DNA of 64,000 nucleotides from an uncultured Planctomycetales bacterium. Its GTDB lineage: Bacteria; Omnitrophota; Gorgyraeia; Zapsychrales; Fredricksoniimonadaceae. Shown here piece after piece: positions 7,533 through 43,157 of the stretch. Made by a program: the position numbers and the translations under genes. The notes beneath the pieces were generated by a model. The model saw only the letters and a list, made by a program, of their open reading frames with translations, did no database searches and was not told the DNA's origin. Where the stretch lies: the NCBI GenBank assembly GCA_964483785.1, contig CAZACW010000004.1, forward strand, positions 6,794 through 70,793, given 5' to 3'. Numbering within the stretch: position 1 is the stretch's first letter; each line of letters starts with the position of its first letter.

Positions 7533-7574
7533 ATTTTCGTCCTCAATTTATCAAAAATCCACCAAAAAGCCATA

Positions 7575-7647
7575 AAAAACTGGGACACATTGAAAAAACT
7601 GGGACACATTGACTTTTCTTAAAAAATTCAATGTGTCCCAGTTTTTT
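7575..7647. terminator. Hairpin terminator downstream of nth, built from a direct repeat plus an inverted copy.
   Basis: The unit aaaaactgggacacattga occurs twice (7575-7612) and its reverse complement tcaatgtgtcccagtttttt lies at 7628-7647, directly after the nth stop. T-runs are present on both strands. Confidence 0.6.
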
Positions 7648-8319
7648 CTAACGGCTGGTGAAGACCTTCACGCGGCGGCAGATTTTTTGGACGGGGCAGG
7701 CGGTGCACAGCGGCGAGATGGGCTTGCAGACATTCTGGCCCCAGGTCACCAGCATGGCATTGTAATCGATCCAGAATTTGGGCGGCAGTTTTTTTCTGAG
7801 GGCGAATTCGGTTTGTTCCGGGGTCTTGGTTTGGACATAGCCCAGGCGGTTGGAAATACGGTGCACATGGGTATCCACACAGATGCCCGGCTTGCCGAAG
7901 CCTTCGGTCAAGACCAAATTGGCTGTTTTGCGTCCCACGCCTTTTAAGGTCAAAAGCTCATCAATGGTCTCCGGCACCCGGCCGTGGAAGCGATGGATGA
8001 GGTCCCTGCAAATTTCGTGGATGCGCAGCGCCTTGGTCTTATAAAAGCCCACGGGATAAATCAATTTTTGGATTTCAGCGACGGGAATTTCAAGCATGCC
8101 TGACATGGTGGCGGCGCGGCCAAAAAGGCGCTCAGAGGCCGGCAGGGTCGTTTCATCGCGGGTACGCAGGCTCAAGAGGCAGGAGATCAGGACCAAGAAC
8201 GGGCTCTTGAATTTTTTGCCGACCAGCGTGACCGAGGGGTCCGGCAGATCACGCATGGCCTTCTGCAGGCGCTTGATCACTTCAGCGATCTGTTTATTGT
8301 CCAAAAGTTTGTTAGTCAT
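7648..8319 (-). CDS. nth: Endonuclease III (DNA glycosylase/AP lyase).
   Basis: The 223-aa product has an HhH-GPD fold and the C-terminal 4Fe-4S motif CKPISPLCTACPVQKIC. Confidence 0.9.
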   Translation of the reverse strand: MTNKLLDNKQIAEVIKRLQKAMRDLPDPSVTLVGKKFKSPFLVLISCLLSLRTRDETTLPASERLFGRAATMSGMLEIPVAEIQKLIYPVGFYKTKALRIHEICRDLIHRFHGRVPETIDELLTLKGVGRKTANLVLTEGFGKPGICVDTHVHRISNRLGYVQTKTPEQTEFALRKKLPPKFWIDYNAMLVTWGQNVCKPISPLCTACPVQKICRRVKVFTSR

Positions 8320-8345
8320 GATCGATTAAGATAAAGTATATGTTC

Positions 8346-8676
8346 TTTTGACGACTGTAAAATTTTTAGGCAACGCAAAGGATGAAGGGCATGCTTTTTT
8401 GACGACTGTAAAGTTTTTAGCCAACGTAAAGGATAAAGGATATGTTTTTTGACGACTGTCATCGTTTTTGCTGCCTTTCTAGAAAATTTTTGTGGAAGGC
8501 AGCGACGCCAACGGTCTCATGATGCTTCGGCGGCTGAAAAACTCGTCCCGAAGTTCTCTGGAACTTCGGGACTCGAACATTTCAGCCGCCCCTCGGCCTT
8601 CGCCTCGGGGTTCCCTCGCATCATGAGCTGCGTTGGCTAAAAACTTTACAGTCGTCAAAAAACATATCCTTTATCC
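8346..8676. repeat. Composite intergenic element: 2.5 direct copies of a ~49-bp unit, a ~170-bp GC-rich hairpin-rich core, and one inverted copy of the unit.
   Basis: Copies of ttttttgacgactgtaaaRtttttagScaacgYaaaggat... start at 8346, 8395 and 8445. The reverse-complement copy ttggctaaaaactttacagtcgtcaaaaaacatatcctttatcc lies at 8633-8676. The core has nested hairpins such as ggcggctgaaa...tttcagccgcc and gtcccgaagttc-cagaga-acttcgggac. Confidence 0.6.
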
Positions 8677-8694
8677 TAAAGATTTCAAATATAT

Positions 8695-9618
8695 TTACAT
8701 CTCGCCAAAAATATACCCCATCTCTTCCAGGGCGGAATGGTCCTCCCTCCAGCGGGAAGCGATTTTGACAAACAGCTCCAGAAAAACTTTTTGCCCCACC
8801 AGCGCTTCCAGGTCCTTGCGCGCCTCGGTCCCCACCTGCTTCAACACGGCCCCGGCCTTGCCGATGACGATTTCCTTTTGCGAATCGCGCTCGACTAAAA
8901 TCGTCGAACGGATATGCAGGACCTTGCCGCGTTTAGGCTTGACGCTGTCAATCAGGACCGCAATGGAATGCGGCACTTCCTGGCGCATCAATTTGAAAAG
9001 TTTTTCGCGGATCAAGTCCGCCATGGCCATGCGCCTGGGAAAATCCGTGATCACATCCTCGGGATACAAAAAAGGCCCGGAAGGCATCAGCCCAAACAAA
9101 AGGTCGAGCAATTTCGGGACATGCGTCCCTTGAAGGGCCGAGATGGGCAATAAAGTCAAGTCATCCATGTCCGTGATGGGTTTGCCGCGGACCTCTTCCC
9201 AAAGCCGGATATACTCCGGGACAAATTTGCCCTTGGTGATGTCGATTTTATTCAAGGCGATGATGATGGGCCGGCCGCACCGGTTCAGGCGGCCGATTAC
9301 ATGCTCTTCTTCGGGGCCGGTCTTTTCGCTGGCATCCACCATATGGATCACCGCGTCGACGGAATCGATGCTGCCGATCGAGGCGCGGTTCATGTACTTG
9401 TCGAGCTTGTCGCGGCCGGCGTGCAGGCCGGGCGTGTCGATGAAAACAATCTGGCCGCGCTTCTCGGTGTGGATGGCCTTGATCTGCTGGCGCGTGGTCT
9501 GCGGCACGTCGGAGACGATGGAAATTTTTTCGCCCACAATGGCATTGACCAGGGTCGATTTGCCGACATTCGGCCTGCCGACAATGGCCACCATGCCGCT
9601 TTTAAGTTTTTTTTCCAC
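8695..9618 (-). CDS. era: GTPase Era.
   Basis: The 307-aa product has the GRPNVGKSTL G1 motif, DTPG, NKxD, and a C-terminal KH domain. Confidence 0.9.
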   Translation of the reverse strand: MEKKLKSGMVAIVGRPNVGKSTLVNAIVGEKISIVSDVPQTTRQQIKAIHTEKRGQIVFIDTPGLHAGRDKLDKYMNRASIGSIDSVDAVIHMVDASEKTGPEEEHVIGRLNRCGRPIIIALNKIDITKGKFVPEYIRLWEEVRGKPITDMDDLTLLPISALQGTHVPKLLDLLFGLMPSGPFLYPEDVITDFPRRMAMADLIREKLFKLMRQEVPHSIAVLIDSVKPKRGKVLHIRSTILVERDSQKEIVIGKAGAVLKQVGTEARKDLEALVGQKVFLELFVKIASRWREDHSALEEMGYIFGEM

Positions 9619-13391: not shown

Positions 13392-14279
13392 TTATAGCGC
13401 GTCTTTCACTTGGACAAAATCCGCGCGGCGCTCCAATTTGGCGATCTGGTCCCTCAGGACGTCAATGTCTTCCTTCAGGCCCTTGATCTGGGAGCGCATC
13501 TGATTGTTGCGGGCATCGATGAGCACCATCCTGTGCACCAAGGTCTTTTTCATCAAGGGCCAGGAAAGGCCCATCAGGGAACTGTCCCTCAAATCTTCCA
13601 GGCGCAGGACATTGGCATAGATCTCCCGCTTAAGCTCTTGTTTGTGCGCGTTTAAATCTTTGAGGGTCGGCGCGCTGTACGTCCCCCCTTTTTTCAGGGC
13701 CGCAAGAATATTTTCCAAAAGCACCTCCTGCGTGCTTTCATCCTCGAGCTGCTGGCGCAGCTGGCCCAGCTGGGGATCAGGGTCATCGCCCCTTTGCCCA
13801 GGCAGGGCATCAATCTGTTCTTTCTGATTAAGCCGGACAAGTTCCCGTCCGCGGACCGCATACTTTATGGCCTGGACCTTGTGCTCACTCTCTGACCGTC
13901 TTCGTCTTAAATCCCGCAGCTGCAGCGCGTAGTCCTTGAGACGCTGGTTCTTGGCCCTGATGCTTTCGTTAAGCTCGATGATACGCAGGTCCTGGTCTGT
14001 CTGGCCGTGGCGTTCCTGCAAAATGGCTGCGCTCTGCGCATTTTTGTCCCTTTGCTGGTCAATGGCCTGCCTTAATTCATCGGCCTTTTCCACCAATTGC
14101 TGGTATTCGTCTTTAAGGCCGTCATTTTCAACGCCCAGTGACTGGGCCTTGGCCTTGATCACGTCCAGGGTCAATTGCCATTGCTCGGGCATGGACGAAG
14201 GTCCGGCCGACAGCTGGGCCCTGGCCTCGCCCAAGAGGCAAATGAGAGGCAAAAGCAAAACAAAGACATAAAAACGCAT
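13392..14279 (-). CDS. Secreted coiled-coil protein (hypothetical).
   Basis: The product has an N-terminal signal peptide (MRFYVFVLLLPLICLLGEARAQ) followed by long heptad-rich, charge-rich segments. No catalytic domain is evident. Confidence 0.55.
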   Translation of the reverse strand: MRFYVFVLLLPLICLLGEARAQLSAGPSSMPEQWQLTLDVIKAKAQSLGVENDGLKDEYQQLVEKADELRQAIDQQRDKNAQSAAILQERHGQTDQDLRIIELNESIRAKNQRLKDYALQLRDLRRRRSESEHKVQAIKYAVRGRELVRLNQKEQIDALPGQRGDDPDPQLGQLRQQLEDESTQEVLLENILAALKKGGTYSAPTLKDLNAHKQELKREIYANVLRLEDLRDSSLMGLSWPLMKKTLVHRMVLIDARNNQMRSQIKGLKEDIDVLRDQIAKLERRADFVQVKDAL

Positions 14280-14344: not shown

Positions 14345-14394
14345 ATGTTTAACAGACCGTCGGATACCATCACAACCCCGGGGGTTGTGATGGT
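14345..14394. repeat. REP-like palindromic element (single unit) with a conserved 5' flank aacagaccgtcgg.
   Basis: The sequence accatcacaaccccgggggttgtgatggt (14366-14394) is preceded by tgtttaacagaccgtcgg. The same flank precedes the units at 22530 and 29283. Confidence 0.8.
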
Positions 14395-22529: not shown

Positions 22530-22612
22530 GAATGTTTGGCAGACCGTCGGGCCCCACCACAACCTCCGGGGTTGTGATGGTTAACCATCACAACCCCGGA
22601 GGTTGTGGTGGG
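22530..22612. repeat. REP-like element made of two inverted palindromic units plus the 5' flank tgtttggcagaccgtcgg.
   Basis: The sequence ccaccacaacctccggggttgtgatggt-taacc-atcacaaccccggaggttgtggtgg lies between purM and purQ. Confidence 0.85.
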
Positions 22613-22636
22613 GCCCTATGGATCGCTAAACATCAT

Positions 22637-23445: not shown

Positions 23446-23512
23446 GACATAACCTCCACAACCCCGGGGGTTGTGATGGTTACCATCGCAACCCCGGGGG
23501 TTGCGGAGGTCC
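23446..23512. repeat. REP-like element made of two palindromic units.
   Basis: The sequence cctccacaaccccgggggttgtgatggttaccatcgcaaccccgggggttgcggagg lies between purQ and the LOG gene. Confidence 0.85.
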
Positions 23513-29282: not shown

Positions 29283-29355
29283 ATTTTGTTTGGCAGACCA
29301 TCCGGACCTGTCCTGGACATAAAAAACCATCACAACCCCGGGGGTTGTGATGGTT
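29283..29355. terminator. REP-like palindrome acting as a probable bidirectional intrinsic terminator.
   Basis: The sequence aaaaaacc-atcacaaccccgggggttgtgat-ggttttttg has an A-run and a T-run flanking the perfect palindrome. It is preceded by the family flank tttggcagaccatccgg. Confidence 0.6.
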
Positions 29356-30115: not shown

Positions 30116-31198
30116 ATGATTGAGCAAATACGAAAAAATATTGACCGCAGCCTTTCCTCGTTTCTTGACACGGTCAAGCGCGACTACAAACTGCATTTGG
30201 TCTCTCCCATCCTGTTTGAGAGCATCCGCGAATTCACCCTGCGGGAAGGCAAGCGCCTGCGGCCCCTGCTTTTGGTCTTGACCTACAAAGGCTATGCCCC
30301 GGCCTCCAAAAAAATTTCCCGCAAGCTCTACAACGCCTCCACCTGCATGGAATTCCTGCACAATTTCATGCTGATCCACGACGATATCATCGACCGCTCG
30401 GACCTGCGCCGCGGCCGGCCCACCATGCACAAGGTGCTGGAAGCCACGGTCAAAAGCAGCGCCCCGCAAAAATTGGGCATCGATTTGGGGATCATCGCCG
30501 GGGACATTGTCTATGCCCTGGCCATCGACGCCTTTCTGTCCATCGACGAGAAGCTCCAGCGCAAGGAGCGGGCCCTGAAATATTTCATCCAGACCGCGGC
30601 CTTCACGGCCATGGGCGAATTCATCGACACGGTCAGCGGCGTCAAGCCCATCGCCGAGGTGGATGAAAAAGAGGTCTTTCTCAATTACACCCTCAAGACC
30701 GCCCGCTACACCTTTGACTGCCCCATGGTCACCGGCGCCATCCTCTCCGGCGCCGACGACCGCGAAATCGAAAAAATATCGCGCTTCGGCATCCTCATCG
30801 GCCAGGCCTTCCAGGTGCAGGATGATATCATCGGGATCTTTGAGACCGAGGCCAATATCGGCAAATCCATTTTAAGCGATCTGGCGGAAGGCAAGAAAAC
30901 CCTGCTGGTGACCCATGCCTTCAGTGTTTTGCCTAAAAGGCCACGGGCCAGGTTCTTGAAGATCTTCGCCAAGAAAACCAAGACGCTCAAAGACCTGGAA
31001 ACAGTCAAAAAAATCTTTGTAGAGGCCAAAAGCCTGGATTACGCTTTAAACGCCATTAACCGCAGGCTCGACGAAGCGCAGACAATCCTCGAGGCCTTAA
31101 AAATGAACCCCGAATCCAAGGGCCTGCTGAAAGCTTCCCTGCTTAAACTCTTCAACCATTCCCAAAGGATCGCCGCCTCATATCAAGCGGCTGGATAA
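30116..31198 (+). CDS. Polyprenyl diphosphate synthase (trans-isoprenyl diphosphate synthase; GGPP/FPP synthase-like).
   Basis: The product has the first Asp-rich motif LIHDDIIDRSDLRRGRP and a second DDxxD region (FQVQDDIIG). Confidence 0.8.
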   Translation: MIEQIRKNIDRSLSSFLDTVKRDYKLHLVSPILFESIREFTLREGKRLRPLLLVLTYKGYAPASKKISRKLYNASTCMEFLHNFMLIHDDIIDRSDLRRGRPTMHKVLEATVKSSAPQKLGIDLGIIAGDIVYALAIDAFLSIDEKLQRKERALKYFIQTAAFTAMGEFIDTVSGVKPIAEVDEKEVFLNYTLKTARYTFDCPMVTGAILSGADDREIEKISRFGILIGQAFQVQDDIIGIFETEANIGKSILSDLAEGKKTLLVTHAFSVLPKRPRARFLKIFAKKTKTLKDLETVKKIFVEAKSLDYALNAINRRLDEAQTILEALKMNPESKGLLKASLLKLFNHSQRIAASYQAAG

Positions 31199-32452: not shown

Positions 32453-32481
32453 ATGTTTGTGGCCTCCCTACCGGCCACTCC

Positions 32482-33213
32482 TTACGGTCGTGGTCTCCCT
32501 ACCGGCCACTCCCGACGGTCGTAGAAAACCCCCACAAAAACAATTCCCAATTCATATAAGAGAAGCAGAGGCAGGGCCAGGACCATCATGGACACGATGT
32601 CCGGCGGGGCGAGCAAGGCCGCGACGACGAGGATGATCAGCACGGCGTGGCGCCTCATCTGGCGCAGGTATTCCGGCGAGGCGATGCCGATCTTGGCCAG
32701 AAAGGCCAGCACCAGAGGAAGCTCAAAGGCCGCACCGAAGGCCACGATCATGTGCCCCAAAAACCCGAGATAATTTTTGACCGTCACCATCGGCACCAGA
32801 TACGCGGAAGAAAAACCCATCAAGAATCCGTAGGCCCTGGGCACGGCGATGAAATACGCGAACGCGGCGCCTGCCAAAAAAAACAAAAGGGAGAGCGGTG
32901 CAAAAACCACGACGAATTTTTTTTCGGAAGGCTTGAGGGCCGAGGCCACAAAGGCCCAGGCCTGGTAACAAATAAACGGCGAGGCCAAAAGCAGGGCCAT
33001 GACCGTGCCCACCGTCATGTAGGTCGAAAACGCCTCCGTCGGCGCTGTAAACACCAGACGGCCGGCAGGCGCGATCAGCACCGGGATGAGCTTGCCGATA
33101 TACCCCCAGCAAAAACAGAAGGCCAGAACAAAAGCGCCCGCGGACTTTAATGTCCGCGAGCGCAATTCTTCCATGTGCTTGAAAAAGGACTGGAATAAGG
33201 ACTGAAACGTCAC
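32482..33213 (-). CDS. tatC: Twin-arginine translocase subunit TatC.
   Basis: The 243-aa product has 6 TM helices and TatC-like N-terminal H(L/M)xELRxR (HMEELRSR). It starts at a GTG that overlaps the tatA stop (GTGA). Confidence 0.85.
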   Translation of the reverse strand: MTFQSLFQSFFKHMEELRSRTLKSAGAFVLAFCFCWGYIGKLIPVLIAPAGRLVFTAPTEAFSTYMTVGTVMALLLASPFICYQAWAFVASALKPSEKKFVVVFAPLSLLFFLAGAAFAYFIAVPRAYGFLMGFSSAYLVPMVTVKNYLGFLGHMIVAFGAAFELPLVLAFLAKIGIASPEYLRQMRRHAVLIILVVAALLAPPDIVSMMVLALPLLLLYELGIVFVGVFYDRREWPVGRPRP

Positions 33214-33458: not shown

Positions 33459-35177
33459 TTATTTCTGGGCCTGCAGTTTTTTGACCTTGTCCTGCAAAGC
33501 ATCGACTTGGTTTTGTAACCCATTGACCTGCGCTTTTAGCTCCTTGATGGACTGCAGAAGGACTGCGGAGAATTTACCGTAATCAATGCCCAGATATTCC
33601 TGCCCGTTGATCTTGTTGGAGGCCACCAATTCCGGATAAACCTTCTGCAGTTCCTGGGCAAGCAAGCCGATGCTTTTTTGGCCTGGCTTAAGTCCTATGT
33701 TACGGGACAACTGGTTCCATTCAAAGGACACGCCATGCAATTGGTTGATTTTGGACAATGTATCCGGCAATGAAACTATGTTCTGTTTTAAACGCATGTC
33801 CGAAGCGCCGGTGACGGTGCCTGAGGCCCAAATATTGCCCGTAACGCTCATGTTACCCGTCTGGTTATAGCTGCCGTTAACGATTAAATTGCTGTTGAGA
33901 TTAAGGTTATTGAGAGTGTCAAATAAAGCTTGGCTGGCAGGGTTATTAGCGACACGAAAAACTATATCGTTTCCTGCCGGCCGGTTTAAATAAAGATGCT
34001 GGTCCGTAGGACTGCTCAAAATATTGTATTGGACGCATCCAGCCGAGGTGGCGGTCTGCCCCAGCGTCAAGCCCACATAATTAGGACCGCAGCCCGCGGT
34101 CCCGATTTGGGCCACGCCTGTTCCCTCGCCTTTGACAGAGAGCGTATTGATGGGAGATGCATAGTCAATGCCTAAATTGCCGCTGCCATTGACATAAAGG
34201 CTGTTGGCCGGAGCATTCCAGGCCACGCCAAACTGAGAAGTAGCGCTGCCCATATCAAAAAAACCGAAATTATAACTCGCATCATAACCCAACACCATCT
34301 GCCGGCACCCTGCCGGACAGGTTGCCCCGGAAGTCCTGCCTATGGACACCTGCCCATTGACTGCGGCGGGGGCATTAAATGCGCCGACCTGGAGCATGTA
34401 GGCAGGGGCAGTTGCCCCGATGCCGACATTGCCGTTGGTGTCGATGCGCATGCGTTCTGTGGGCGTTCCGCCGGGCGATGAGTTCGTACTGGGCGAGGTT
34501 GAAAATGTCAGAAACCCGCCCCATCCCCCGGAATCAACTCCGCTGATTTGGGCCATATTAAGGACATCATTATTGTTGGTAAAAAGAATGGAGCTTCCAT
34601 TGCCGCCATTTCCGTTCACAGAATTTAATCTAAGCAAGTTCCCTAAAGTGGCGTTGCCGGTATCATGGGTGATTTCCAACGAAGCTTGGGGTGTTGTATT
34701 ATTCCCAATGCCGACATTGTTTAAGTAGGTCCCGAAGACCAATTGGGCCGCAGGATTGGTGCCAATGACAAAGGGTGATCCCGCAGGACCATTCAGGTTA
34801 AATACCCTAAATCCCGCATCAGCGGCATCTCCGTCCCAATTTAAATAGACATTAAATATATTCCATTGGCCGGTCAAATCAAGGTTTCCCGTAGCACCGT
34901 CCATGAAAAACGTCCATGGGCTATCAAAATTATTTCCGATGGTCAATGGAGTCCCCCAAGTGGCCGTGGGTGATTCCAGAACAGATGAACCTAAAACATC
35001 CAGCACGTCCGTCCCGACAAAGGTGCCGATGCCGACATTATTGGAAGAAAGGTGATTGTAATTGCCGCTGGGGGCAGGGTAATACGTGGTGAGGGTGGTC
35101 GTTCCGGCATAGACCGCAAGAGCGCCAAGCATTAAAAAAGCCGCTGTGCTAAACAAAAGGCCAAGCTTTTTCATCAA
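33459..35177 (-). CDS. Secreted Gly/Asn/Thr-rich fibre protein with a C-terminal peptidase S74 (intramolecular chaperone auto-processing, tail-fibre/endosialidase-type) domain.
   Basis: The product has a signal peptide and a long G/N/T/S-rich beta-helix-like body. Its C-terminus, ...ASDMRLKQNIVSLPDTLSKINQLHGVSFEWN...IGLLAQELQKVYPELV..., matches the S74 chaperone domain (SD-RLK-NI motif) and ends in a coiled coil. Confidence 0.75.
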   Translation of the reverse strand: MMKKLGLLFSTAAFLMLGALAVYAGTTTLTTYYPAPSGNYNHLSSNNVGIGTFVGTDVLDVLGSSVLESPTATWGTPLTIGNNFDSPWTFFMDGATGNLDLTGQWNIFNVYLNWDGDAADAGFRVFNLNGPAGSPFVIGTNPAAQLVFGTYLNNVGIGNNTTPQASLEITHDTGNATLGNLLRLNSVNGNGGNGSSILFTNNNDVLNMAQISGVDSGGWGGFLTFSTSPSTNSSPGGTPTERMRIDTNGNVGIGATAPAYMLQVGAFNAPAAVNGQVSIGRTSGATCPAGCRQMVLGYDASYNFGFFDMGSATSQFGVAWNAPANSLYVNGSGNLGIDYASPINTLSVKGEGTGVAQIGTAGCGPNYVGLTLGQTATSAGCVQYNILSSPTDQHLYLNRPAGNDIVFRVANNPASQALFDTLNNLNLNSNLIVNGSYNQTGNMSVTGNIWASGTVTGASDMRLKQNIVSLPDTLSKINQLHGVSFEWNQLSRNIGLKPGQKSIGLLAQELQKVYPELVASNKINGQEYLGIDYGKFSAVLLQSIKELKAQVNGLQNQVDALQDKVKKLQAQK

Positions 35178-41945: not shown

Positions 41946-43157
41946 ATGCGCGTCTTATTCCATTACACCCACAAGCAGACCCTCGGACATACGACAAGGT
42001 CCGTGGCGCTGGTCACGGCCCTCTGCCGCCATGGCGCCGAGGTCCTCGTCTTGCAGGGCGGGCTGCCCCAGCCTTTTGTCCAATTCCCTAAGAATGCCAA
42101 GGTGCTGGATCTTCCCCTGCCCTTTGACGGCCGGGGCAGTTTTCAGGCCCATGCCGCCCCTGTTTCAGCGGCGCAGCGCGCCCCATTTATCCTGAAAACA
42201 GCGGCAGATTTTAAGCCGGATGTCTTCATCACGGAATTTTTTCCATTCGGCCGGCTTTCTTATACGCCGGAATTGCTGCCGACCCTGCGCTTCCTGCGCA
42301 AAAAAGGCGTAAGGATTTTAGCCAGCATCGGATACCCGCTGTTGATTGACCTGGAGCGGTTTCAGGACCCCCGATTTTGCGCTTTGCACAAATCCATCTT
42401 TGCCTTCTTTGACACCTTCCTGATCCACACGCCGGACAAACTTGAAACAGCCTATATCCAAAAGACCATCCCTTCCGAGGCGCTGGCCAAACTGTATTTC
42501 AACCTGTTAAAAGAACTCGAACCAAGGACCAAGTACACCGGGTATGTCTATCCGCAACCCATGATCAGTGATACCGGCAAACCTCGGGCCGTTGCCAAGA
42601 ACAAAACCGTTGTCATCAGCCGCGGCGGCGGGGCCGTGTATCCGAAGCTCATCACTTTAAGCATCGAGGCGAAACGCTTACTGGCCCCTGACATTCATCT
42701 GATCATCGCCTGCGGTCCAGCCACAACAGCAAAAGAAATGGCCTTGTTCCAATCCTGCCTTAAGCCCAAAGACCAATCCAAAATATTTCTCACGCAAAGG
42801 ATCTCAGACCTGGATGATTATTTCAAAGACTGCCTGGCCTCGGTCAGCCTCTGCGGCTACAATACCTCGGTCCAATTGATGCGTCACGGCACACCCTCAG
42901 TCCTGGTCCCTTATCAAAACAATCTCTCCCGCGACAAGGTCTTAAAAACCAATACCAATGACCAGATTGCCCGCGCCCGTCTGCTCAAAGAACGCTTTTG
43001 CGGCCTCATCCTGGACTATGACCTGATGACCGCCTCTAATTTGGCTGAGGCCATTACCCAGCAAATCCACGCCCCCCGTCCTGCCCCTGCCCCCCAGGCC
43101 TGGTTTAACGGGGCTGATCTGACAGCACGCCTGGTGCTTGAAGGTAGTCCAAATTGA
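41946..43157 (+). CDS. GT-B fold glycosyltransferase (MurG/GT28-like C-domain), copy 1.
   Basis: The 403-aa product has N-terminal ...LGHTTRSVAL..., mid-region KPDVFITEFFPFG and a C-terminal VISRGGGAVYP...SVSLCGYNTSVQLM...PSVLVPY donor-binding region. Confidence 0.6.
   Translation: MRVLFHYTHKQTLGHTTRSVALVTALCRHGAEVLVLQGGLPQPFVQFPKNAKVLDLPLPFDGRGSFQAHAAPVSAAQRAPFILKTAADFKPDVFITEFFPFGRLSYTPELLPTLRFLRKKGVRILASIGYPLLIDLERFQDPRFCALHKSIFAFFDTFLIHTPDKLETAYIQKTIPSEALAKLYFNLLKELEPRTKYTGYVYPQPMISDTGKPRAVAKNKTVVISRGGGAVYPKLITLSIEAKRLLAPDIHLIIACGPATTAKEMALFQSCLKPKDQSKIFLTQRISDLDDYFKDCLASVSLCGYNTSVQLMRHGTPSVLVPYQNNLSRDKVLKTNTNDQIARARLLKERFCGLILDYDLMTASNLAEAITQQIHAPRPAPAPQAWFNGADLTARLVLEGSPN

Follow-up and report, generated by a model that had tools for sequence, protein, structure and literature searches.

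The 64-kb stretch of DNA analysed here (the window; 64,000 nt of contig CAZACW010000004.1, numbered from its first letter) carries a non-coding palindromic element between its genes era and nth, which fills the entire gap of 375 nt (8320-8694), as a preliminary description made from the letters alone had already stated. [quoted passage not shown] This reading is carried by the absence of the element from the same junction in related genomes, by a homologous element at an unrelated locus on another contig (L031), and by a core fold that covaries between the two copies. Among bacterial repeats, the element represents a new family within a known kind, not a new kind of system, and is MITE-like rather than a proven MITE. 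Judged by its Era protein, which is 75-86% identical to Omnitrophota Era proteins, the window belongs to Candidatus Omnitrophota.

Insertion into the era|nth junction

Both flanking genes are encoded on the minus strand, with the transcription order era, element, nth. To place this arrangement, we compared it with the syntenic loci of related Omnitrophota, in which nth comes directly after era. At 11 of these loci (L002-L006, L009, L010, L012, L028, L030 and L060/L061), the two genes overlap or are separated by at most 41 nt, typically in the form TAAaATG. The closest relatives show a clean junction of 1-5 nt, and the gap is 4 nt in L012, the relative with the most similar Era segment. Because era and nth overlap or nearly touch in these 11 relatives, the window element is, by this comparison of loci, an insertion between the two genes. 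Elsewhere in the operon (yjbQ, pfkB and two small open reading frames (ORFs) before era), the junctions are tight wherever gene calls were returned.

In six other relatives (L007, L008, L011, L029, L062/L063 and probably L064), the era|nth junction is enlarged to 200-434 nt, and long inverted repeats enclose the one or two elements present in each enlarged junction, which are unrelated in sequence to the window element. The further elements of this build, including one beside the homologue on contig L031, were located at the following positions:

L007, 4975-5125
L062, 2250-2393 and 2410-2590
L029, 2456-2639 and 2666-2843
L008, 3942-4230
L011, 4920-5105 and 6513-6669
L031, 330-500

At least six further families bounded by inverted repeats are represented at era|nth in related Omnitrophota. 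L007 and L062 carry the same family in opposite orientations at the same junction, the first L029 element recurs in L031, and L011 holds two copies of its element within 1.6 kb, spaced 1.4 kb apart. The gap elements of L007, L008 and L011 were also considered as homologues of the window element and were rejected as not homologous, the shared string GATATGTTTTTT being too short. As far as these loci can be compared, era|nth is a repeatedly used insertion site for diverse palindromic elements.

Anatomy of the element

The basic element comprises about 215-230 nt, with two inverted, AT-rich arms of about 47-58 nt on either side of a GC-rich core of about 125 nt. In the window, this plan is extended by tandem copies of one arm and by an additional hairpin, H0. 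The parts of the locus are as follows:

7648-8319, minus strand, nth, downstream gene for an endonuclease III-like HhH-GPD/HHH glycosylase (Pfam HhH-GPD and HHH)
8320-8329, spacer of 10 nt (GATCGATTAA) that separates copy 1 from the start codon of nth and resembles the tail of a further unit
8330-8380, plus strand, direct copy 1 of the 51-bp unit, outermost and adjoining nth
8381-8431, plus strand, direct copy 2, again of the 51-bp unit; its part 8395-8426 is 100% complementary to the inner 32 nt of arm R (8631-8662)
8430-8469, plus strand, direct copy 3, the innermost and original left arm, whose outer 30 nt are perfectly complementary to arm R
8470-8503, extra hairpin H0 (GCTGCCTTTC...GAAGGCAGC), an inverted repeat (8470-8479/8495-8503) with one bulge
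8505-8630, conserved core, a three-way junction according to the alignment with L031, RNAalifold and covariance model R1
8507-8513/8631-8637, core helix P1
8516-8525/8618-8627, core helix Pa, a perfect inverted repeat
8529-8530/8613-8614, short closing helix of the core
8531-8539/8580-8588, core helix Pb, within the perfect inverted repeat 8529-8539/8580-8590
8545-8556/8561-8572, core helix Pc, a perfect inverted repeat
8589-8592/8607-8610 and 8595-8597/8602-8604, core helix Pd
8631-8677, minus strand, arm R, the era-proximal terminal inverted-repeat arm; its minus-strand reading, AGGATAAAGGATATGTTTTTTGACGACTGTAAAGTTTTTAGCCAACG, equals the consensus of the direct units
8678-8694, AT-rich 17-nt spacer from the era stop to the outer end of the inverted arm (sequence and promoter scan)
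8695-9618, minus strand, era, upstream gene for GTPase Era (Pfam MMR_HSR1 and KH_2), with its stop codon TAA at 8697-8695

Tandem Repeats Finder returned an array at 8330-8459 with a period of 51 bp, 2.6 copies and 83% matches. For the 24 nt at the centre of the unit, TTTTGACGACTGTAAARTTTTTAG, the window contains three occurrences (8346 and 8397 on the plus strand, 8637 on the minus strand), with 0 occurrences expected in 100 shuffles. The direct repeats named in the preliminary description are therefore real and far beyond chance, with the corrections that their period is 51 bp instead of about 49 bp and that the array starts at 8330 instead of 8346. The same description had reported a perfect inverted copy, which spans 8631-8677. 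Besides its match to copy 2, this copy shows 88% complementarity with copy 3 along a stretch of 42 nt (8430-8471 with 8636-8677), and it matches over its full length the unit consensus and no single direct copy; "perfect" is thus correct with respect to the consensus only.

The reported GC-rich core of nested hairpins was found as described, with perfect inverted repeats at all three core stems, along with H0. This hairpin is part of an insert of about 47 nt that has taken the place of 10 nt in the innermost copy of the left arm, leaving the inner part of direct copy 3 disrupted. Helix Pd has a 2x2 internal loop, which is TC/TC on the plus strand and GA/GA on the minus strand. Folding of the whole 375 nt yielded -163 kcal/mol for the plus and -157 kcal/mol for the minus strand, with a z-score of about -12 on either strand. 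The spacer at 8678-8694 contains the -35-like TTGAAA of the sole promoter-like site returned by the promoter scan, and the spacer has no counterpart in the empty sites of the relatives.

An independent Logan assembly of the same organism (SRR12313480) codes for identical Era and ddl-like proteins. Its contigs L001/L066 break at 8631, the inner edge of the inverted arm, and at about 7602, within the repeats of the nth terminator, and they neither confirm nor contradict the number of tandem units. Palindromes such as these break up short-read assemblies, and because they do so, such elements are probably under-represented in metagenome-assembled genomes.

A homologous element at an unrelated locus

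The only further member of the family was obtained through a spurious 63-aa ORF of the core, which gave a single match, P0121, when searched with phmmer against 1.84 billion representatives. The corresponding contig, L031 (1.5 kb), contains a homologous arm-core-arm element at about 58-290, located downstream of a gene for the P-protein of the glycine-cleavage system (GDC-P) in a context unrelated to era-nth. The GC content of this contig is 47%, compared to 54% for the window. In the L031 element, a single arm flanks the core on either side, tandem units are absent, and H0 has no counterpart; because it has neither of these, we regard the tandem units and H0 as secondary additions in the window copy. 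Its arms are about 58 nt long and complementary at 47 of 63 aligned positions. Although the right arms of the window and L031 copies share only about 58% identity, with indels, the arms are 75-100% complementary inside each copy. Both copies are in the same orientation relative to the upstream gene.

The nucleotide differences between the window and L031 do not follow a reading frame: they are spread evenly over the codon positions (8/12/12), and the minus-strand ORF of the core is broken in L031. Because of both observations, we regard the element as non-coding. In agreement, the exact ORFs of the element were absent from the protein collection searched, the minus-strand ORF had no homologue, and a profile of the plus-strand ORF and P0121 recovered no further member among 5.8 billion clusters.

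Conserved fold of the core

The folds of two sequences only, the window core and the L031 core, enter the following comparison. RNAalifold predicted 47 pairs from their alignment, 14 of them with both sides changed and none broken. In the three-way-junction structure, which is slightly better and has 50 pairs, 98% of the cells are paired, and 15 pairs are changed on both sides and none on one side only, compared to 0-3 pairs changed on both sides in controls in which the partners were slid by 1-3 columns. Differences between the two copies affect 32 of 100 paired columns and 1 of 31 unpaired ones (Fisher p = 7e-4), and covariance model R1 scored the two members with 176 and 169 bits. The view of the core as a real structured unit, which the preliminary description had suggested, is therefore strongly supported by the covariation with L031. 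Instead of a single copy without covariation, which the preliminary description had named as evidence against its own proposal, we found a homologue in another organism whose stems covary.

Judged from this alignment, selection maintains the fold of the core, unless some process keeps the two sides of its stems in register, and its loops (pattern GCTGAAAAACTCGTCC-N(20-30)-GGACTCGAACATTTCAGC) and junctions are under strong sequence constraint. The latter are probably protein-bound or make tertiary contacts. Because the stems covary while the loops stay nearly invariant, we infer a specific partner that would recognise the folded single strand.

The minus strand folds better in both copies, with -81.8 vs. 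-76.3 kcal/mol (plus) for the window core, -62.7 vs. -54.9 kcal/mol for the L031 core and -112.9 vs. -95.9 kcal/mol for the whole L031 element. On this strand, the internal loop of Pd forms a tandem G-A motif and Pc is followed by GAGUUUUU, a terminator-like site, both of which are invariant in L031. Together with the shared orientation of the two copies, these predictions mildly favour the minus strand as the active one.

Evidence for and against a MITE

Several properties of the window element agree with those of MITEs, for which PMC10969869 provides criteria, noting also that flanking direct repeats decay over time. With 375 nt it is shorter than about 800 bp, it is non-coding, it is bounded by terminal inverted repeats, and it is present or absent among relatives. 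Its arms are AT-rich, as is the empty target TAAaATG, and it forms a very stable stem-loop; the core is GC-rich, however. In proposing a MITE-like architecture, the preliminary description was therefore right about a non-coding unit bounded by inverted repeats, which we found to be missing from the junction in 11 relatives and to have a homologue at an unrelated locus. The strict features of a MITE were not found, namely a convincing target-site duplication, more than one copy in 64 kb and a transposase.

These and several other results weigh against an inserted mobile element. There is no convincing target-site duplication at the window copy (GATCGA|TTAAGAT... vs. ...CCTAAA|GATTTC), and none abuts the arms of the L031 copy (CAAGTAG|GCATTG vs. 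CAATGC|AAGCAAC). No second copy was detected in the 64-kb window by sequence and covariance-model scans, no transposase or recombinase domain in the 26 window ORFs scanned, and the family members found amount to two, in the window and on L031. The arm pattern had 0 matches in 185,579 GTDB species-representative genomes and 12 single chance-level matches in JGI metagenomes, none extending past the pattern; as these scans of large collections used the fast-evolving arm and not the conserved core, they say little on the size of the family. An autonomous element with matching arms (AGGATAAAGGATATGTTTTTTGACGACTGT...) was likewise not indicated by any arm-pattern match in GTDB representatives, plasmids, phages or viral contigs. 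The missing target-site duplication weakens membership among the strict MITEs without excluding it, and the lack of clear duplications argues against a classical MITE moved by a DDE-type cut-and-paste mechanism.

Further searches were equally negative. Viral contigs gave 0 matches to the arm pattern and none to a pattern of the Pc stem, while all 28 matches of two loop-motif scans of the same contigs were rejected by the covariance model. Searching the element against plasmids and phages with blastn gave no match, and covariance model R1 detected no diverged copy in the approximately 500 kb of sequence scanned. The Rfam/Infernal check suggested earlier assigned no family: at the gathering score, there was no match in the window or in five related loci, L031 included, and at E values of up to 10 only chance-level matches of the miRNA type appeared, which differed between the two copies. 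A search for tRNA and tmRNA genes found none.

Some known identities were considered and rejected. An integron attC site or gene cassette does not fit, as the inner arm ends GCCAACG/CGTTGGC deviate from the R''/R' sites (RYYYAAC ... GTTRRRY) and no integrase was present in the scanned ORFs. Hammerhead, twister and other ribozymes, a retron, a CRISPR-like array, iterons or a replication origin, dif or parS sites and Tn7-like ends were discarded, since no defining motif or partner gene occurs in the sequence.

Comparison with known repeat elements

The element shares anatomy and behaviour with bcr1, Chunjie, Correia, ERIC and BrickBuilt elements, but no sequence. A parallel to its conserved fold is offered by bcr1 of the Bacillus cereus group (about 155 bp), which is transcribed and keeps a cruciform-like RNA fold through compensatory pair changes, as reported in PMC3184786. 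This interspersed repeat is small and non-coding, its distribution differs from one relative to another, and the core studied here keeps four to five helices through 15 compensatory pairs. In contrast, bcr1 occurs in many copies per genome with flanking 5-bp direct repeats, whereas one copy without flanking repeats was found here in 64 kb; the two have no sequence similarity and belong to different phyla.

Correia elements (CREE) of Neisseria can create promoters at their ends, and RNase III binds or cleaves the RNA made from them (PMC2649163). They resemble the present element in having inverted repeats around a conserved core and in lying between genes, and a promoter-like pair may be present at the nth-proximal end of our element. 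They differ in that their arms measure 26 nt and that they have a TA duplication, an IHF site and copies by the hundred, none of which were shown here, whereas the present arms have 47-58 nt and the core is a branched junction. In enterobacteria, ERIC/IRU sequences form imperfect palindromes of about 127 bp that occur only where intergenic DNA is transcribed, and they are present or absent at a given junction between species and variable in copy number (PMC10969869). The presence or absence at a junction also applies to our element, but ERIC folds into a simple hairpin, lacks both long perfect arms and a three-way-junction core and has no sequence similarity to it.

Insertion into an operon is a feature shared with the very stable Chunjie MITE of Geobacter uraniireducens (PMC3184786), which differs in having 21-bp terminal inverted repeats and 9-bp target duplications, the latter not being shown here. 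The BrickBuilt MITE of Porphyromonas gingivalis contains a tandem minisatellite and has promoter activity (PMC4596501), and internal tandem repeats are also present in our element. The BrickBuilt unit measures 23 nt and there are 19 copies per genome, whereas in the window the whole 51-bp arm is the repeated unit.

REPINs are doublets of REP sequences mobilised by RAYT transposases. Like the window element, they are intergenic, form long hairpins from two inverted repeats, show paired changes in the arms and lack target-site duplications. They differ by their length of about 100 nt, the lack of a branched conserved core and their linkage to RAYT, no gene of which was found among the window ORFs scanned.

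Alternative explanations

We weighed the inserted element against other explanations of the same data. The best of these, which we still regard as rather unlikely, is that the core is a free-standing gene for a non-coding RNA of a new class with its own function in trans, the arms being its closing helix and the two loci having arisen by horizontal transfer or relocation. The strong covariation with conserved loops, the lack of an Rfam match, the better folding of the minus strand in both copies, with the tandem GA/GA loop and a hairpin followed by U5, and the shared orientation relative to the upstream gene would all suit such a gene. However, the element is absent from the syntenic site in all of the approximately 17 relatives sampled, which is unusual for a functional RNA gene, and it has no conserved promoter, as the promoter-like site lacks a counterpart in L031. 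Furthermore, it sits among or beside unrelated inverted-repeat elements at these junctions, and its perfect, wobble-poor stems fold nearly equally on both strands, as DNA palindromes would.

The more specific version offered in the preliminary description, a small-RNA gene with a promoter and terminator derived from the repeats, finds no support in the form given there. The promoter-like site (8688-8661, minus strand) is not conserved in L031, stopping at the internal hairpin and U5 would lose the 3' arms of the covarying helices, and the direct repeats are absent from the L031 homologue altogether.

Less probable still is a cassette-like unit that is read as folded single-stranded DNA by a site-specific recombinase or HUH enzyme targeting era|nth, in the manner of attC sites, REPINs or IS200/IS605 elements. 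It would account for the lack of target-site duplications, for stems that conserve structure more than sequence, for the tandem arrangement of several unrelated palindromic units at one junction (L029, L062, L031) and for the occurrence of one family in both orientations at era|nth, and REP-like palindromes are common in the genome. Yet the ORFs scanned contained no gene for an integrase, a RAYT or a Y1 transposase, the arm ends misfit the R'/R'' core sites of attC, and a branched core enclosed by long terminal inverted arms is missing from IS200/IS605 and REP elements.

We give very little credit to an immobile, locus-specific regulatory spacer that would have arisen in place by local duplications and formation of a palindrome by template switching. 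In its favour, the direct repeats are clearly local tandem duplications, the nth terminator shows a duplication of one arm as well, no target-site duplication is present, and the arm pattern is absent from the large collections. This origin is hard to reconcile with the homologous arm-core-arm element downstream of GDC-P on a contig of 47% vs. 54% GC, and the closest relatives have a clean junction of 1-5 nt.

A small protein encoded by the core would correspond to the 63-aa ORF at 8449-8640 on the plus strand, with its similarity to P0121 (phmmer E = 3.9e-5, 68% identity over 37 residues). This notion is effectively refuted by substitutions that are even over the codon positions and follow the stems instead. 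Also against it are a TTG start inside the repeat arm without a ribosome-binding site and the lack of any other homologue among the 5.8 billion clusters, the exact sequence being called nowhere.

Proposed history and function of the inserted element

Returning to the inserted palindromic element, we propose that an arm-core-arm unit would have entered between the era stop and the nth start, at a junction that was ancestrally overlapping or translationally coupled. The nth-proximal arm would then have been duplicated twice in tandem, producing the 51-bp period with 2.6 copies, and about 47 nt forming the small hairpin H0 would have replaced 10 nt of the innermost arm copy. The terminator of nth in the gap to the ddl-like gene (7574-7648) is a bidirectional-looking hairpin, AAAAAACTGGGACACATTGA / TCAATGTGTCCCAGTTTTTT, whose 3' arm is duplicated in tandem (19 nt, 2.1 copies). 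This tandem duplication of one arm supports an origin of the direct repeats by local slippage, and the sequences suggest that hairpins in this genome are locally prone to such slippage.

As era and nth are encoded on one strand and coupled in the relatives, the element is probably co-transcribed with both genes as a minus-strand RNA. The transcript would contain a long, partly perfect duplex (30-40 bp near-perfect) between the two cistrons, of the type that RNase III cleaves in Correia elements (PMC2649163), which could serve as a signal for processing, stability or attenuation by analogy to Correia elements, and stable intercistronic hairpins can set the relative expression of flanking cistrons. 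Our confidence in such a role at the RNA level is much lower than that in the inserted element itself. The family shared by L007 and L062 counts against it, as its two orientations at era|nth weaken a function of this class purely by read-through into RNA. Recognition of the element as folded single-stranded DNA during mobilisation is a live alternative.

On the minus strand, copy 1 contains the motifs TTTACA (8361-8356) and TATACT (8340-8335), the latter 15 nt before the ATG of nth. The spacer of this -35/-10-like pair is 15 nt long, compared to TATCCT with a 14-nt spacer in the unit consensus, and copy 1 thus departs from the consensus toward a better promoter. The promoter-like reading also draws on other gene starts of the window, many of which have a -10-like box at a comparable distance (5-15 nt). 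The pair may restore the expression of nth after the loss of its coupling to era.

Other features of the window

Many genes of the window have no Shine-Dalgarno sequence and carry a TATAAT-like box 5-15 nt before the start codon, which suggests that leaderless mRNAs or mRNAs with very short leaders are used in this organism. Examples of such boxes are found upstream of the following genes:

13392-14279, minus strand
30116-31198, plus strand
33459-35177, minus strand
41946-43157, plus strand

The third of these genes codes for a protein of 572 aa with a C-terminal Peptidase_S74 (endosialidase chaperone) domain and is located among housekeeping genes. Peptidase_S74 domains are typical of phage tail fibres and self-cleaving surface proteins.

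A stretch at 7533-7581, just upstream of the gene for the D-Ala-D-Ala-ligase-like ATP-grasp protein, shows 79-95% DNA conservation in 8 relatives and stays with the ATP-grasp gene even where other genes part the latter from nth. This leader may be a promoter or a regulatory element of the 5' untranslated region. Another tandem repeat, GC-rich with a unit of 31 nt (GTGGCCTCCCTACCGGCCACTCCCGACGGTC, 2.1 copies, 90% matches), is located at 32459-32522 in the gap upstream of tatC.

The window also contains a family of REP-like, GC-rich palindromes (ACCATCACAACCYCCGGGGTTGTGG) with 12 matches at five loci, none being expected by chance:

581-632
14366-14394
22553-22612, inside a palindrome at 22532-22633 with 51-nt arms
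23456-23506
29326-29354

These palindromes often form inverted doublets that resemble REPINs, and no RAYT-like gene was seen among the window ORFs scanned.

Significance

With this element, a small palindromic repeat appears to be described for the first time from the uncultivated phylum Omnitrophota, and a literature search on Omnitrophota and MITEs returned nothing relevant. What takes the element beyond a routine assignment as a MITE is the core, in which the unpaired nucleotides are almost invariant and a third of the paired ones are changed in a compensatory way. Equally, seven or more unrelated families have struck a single operon junction independently of one another, whereas its neighbours are intact. 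A more far-reaching interpretation, which we consider unlikely, would make the core a new class of structured RNA or folded single-stranded DNA module, whose invariant loops are recognised by a dedicated protein. The core would travel inside inverted-repeat shells that home to era|nth in Omnitrophota, as would six or more unrelated families of palindromes. If true, this would represent a target-specific insertion system without a recognisable transposase or target duplication. Should the copy number and a partner enzyme be found, the era|nth junction would provide a natural assay of target choice and of the survival of a split, formerly coupled gene pair.

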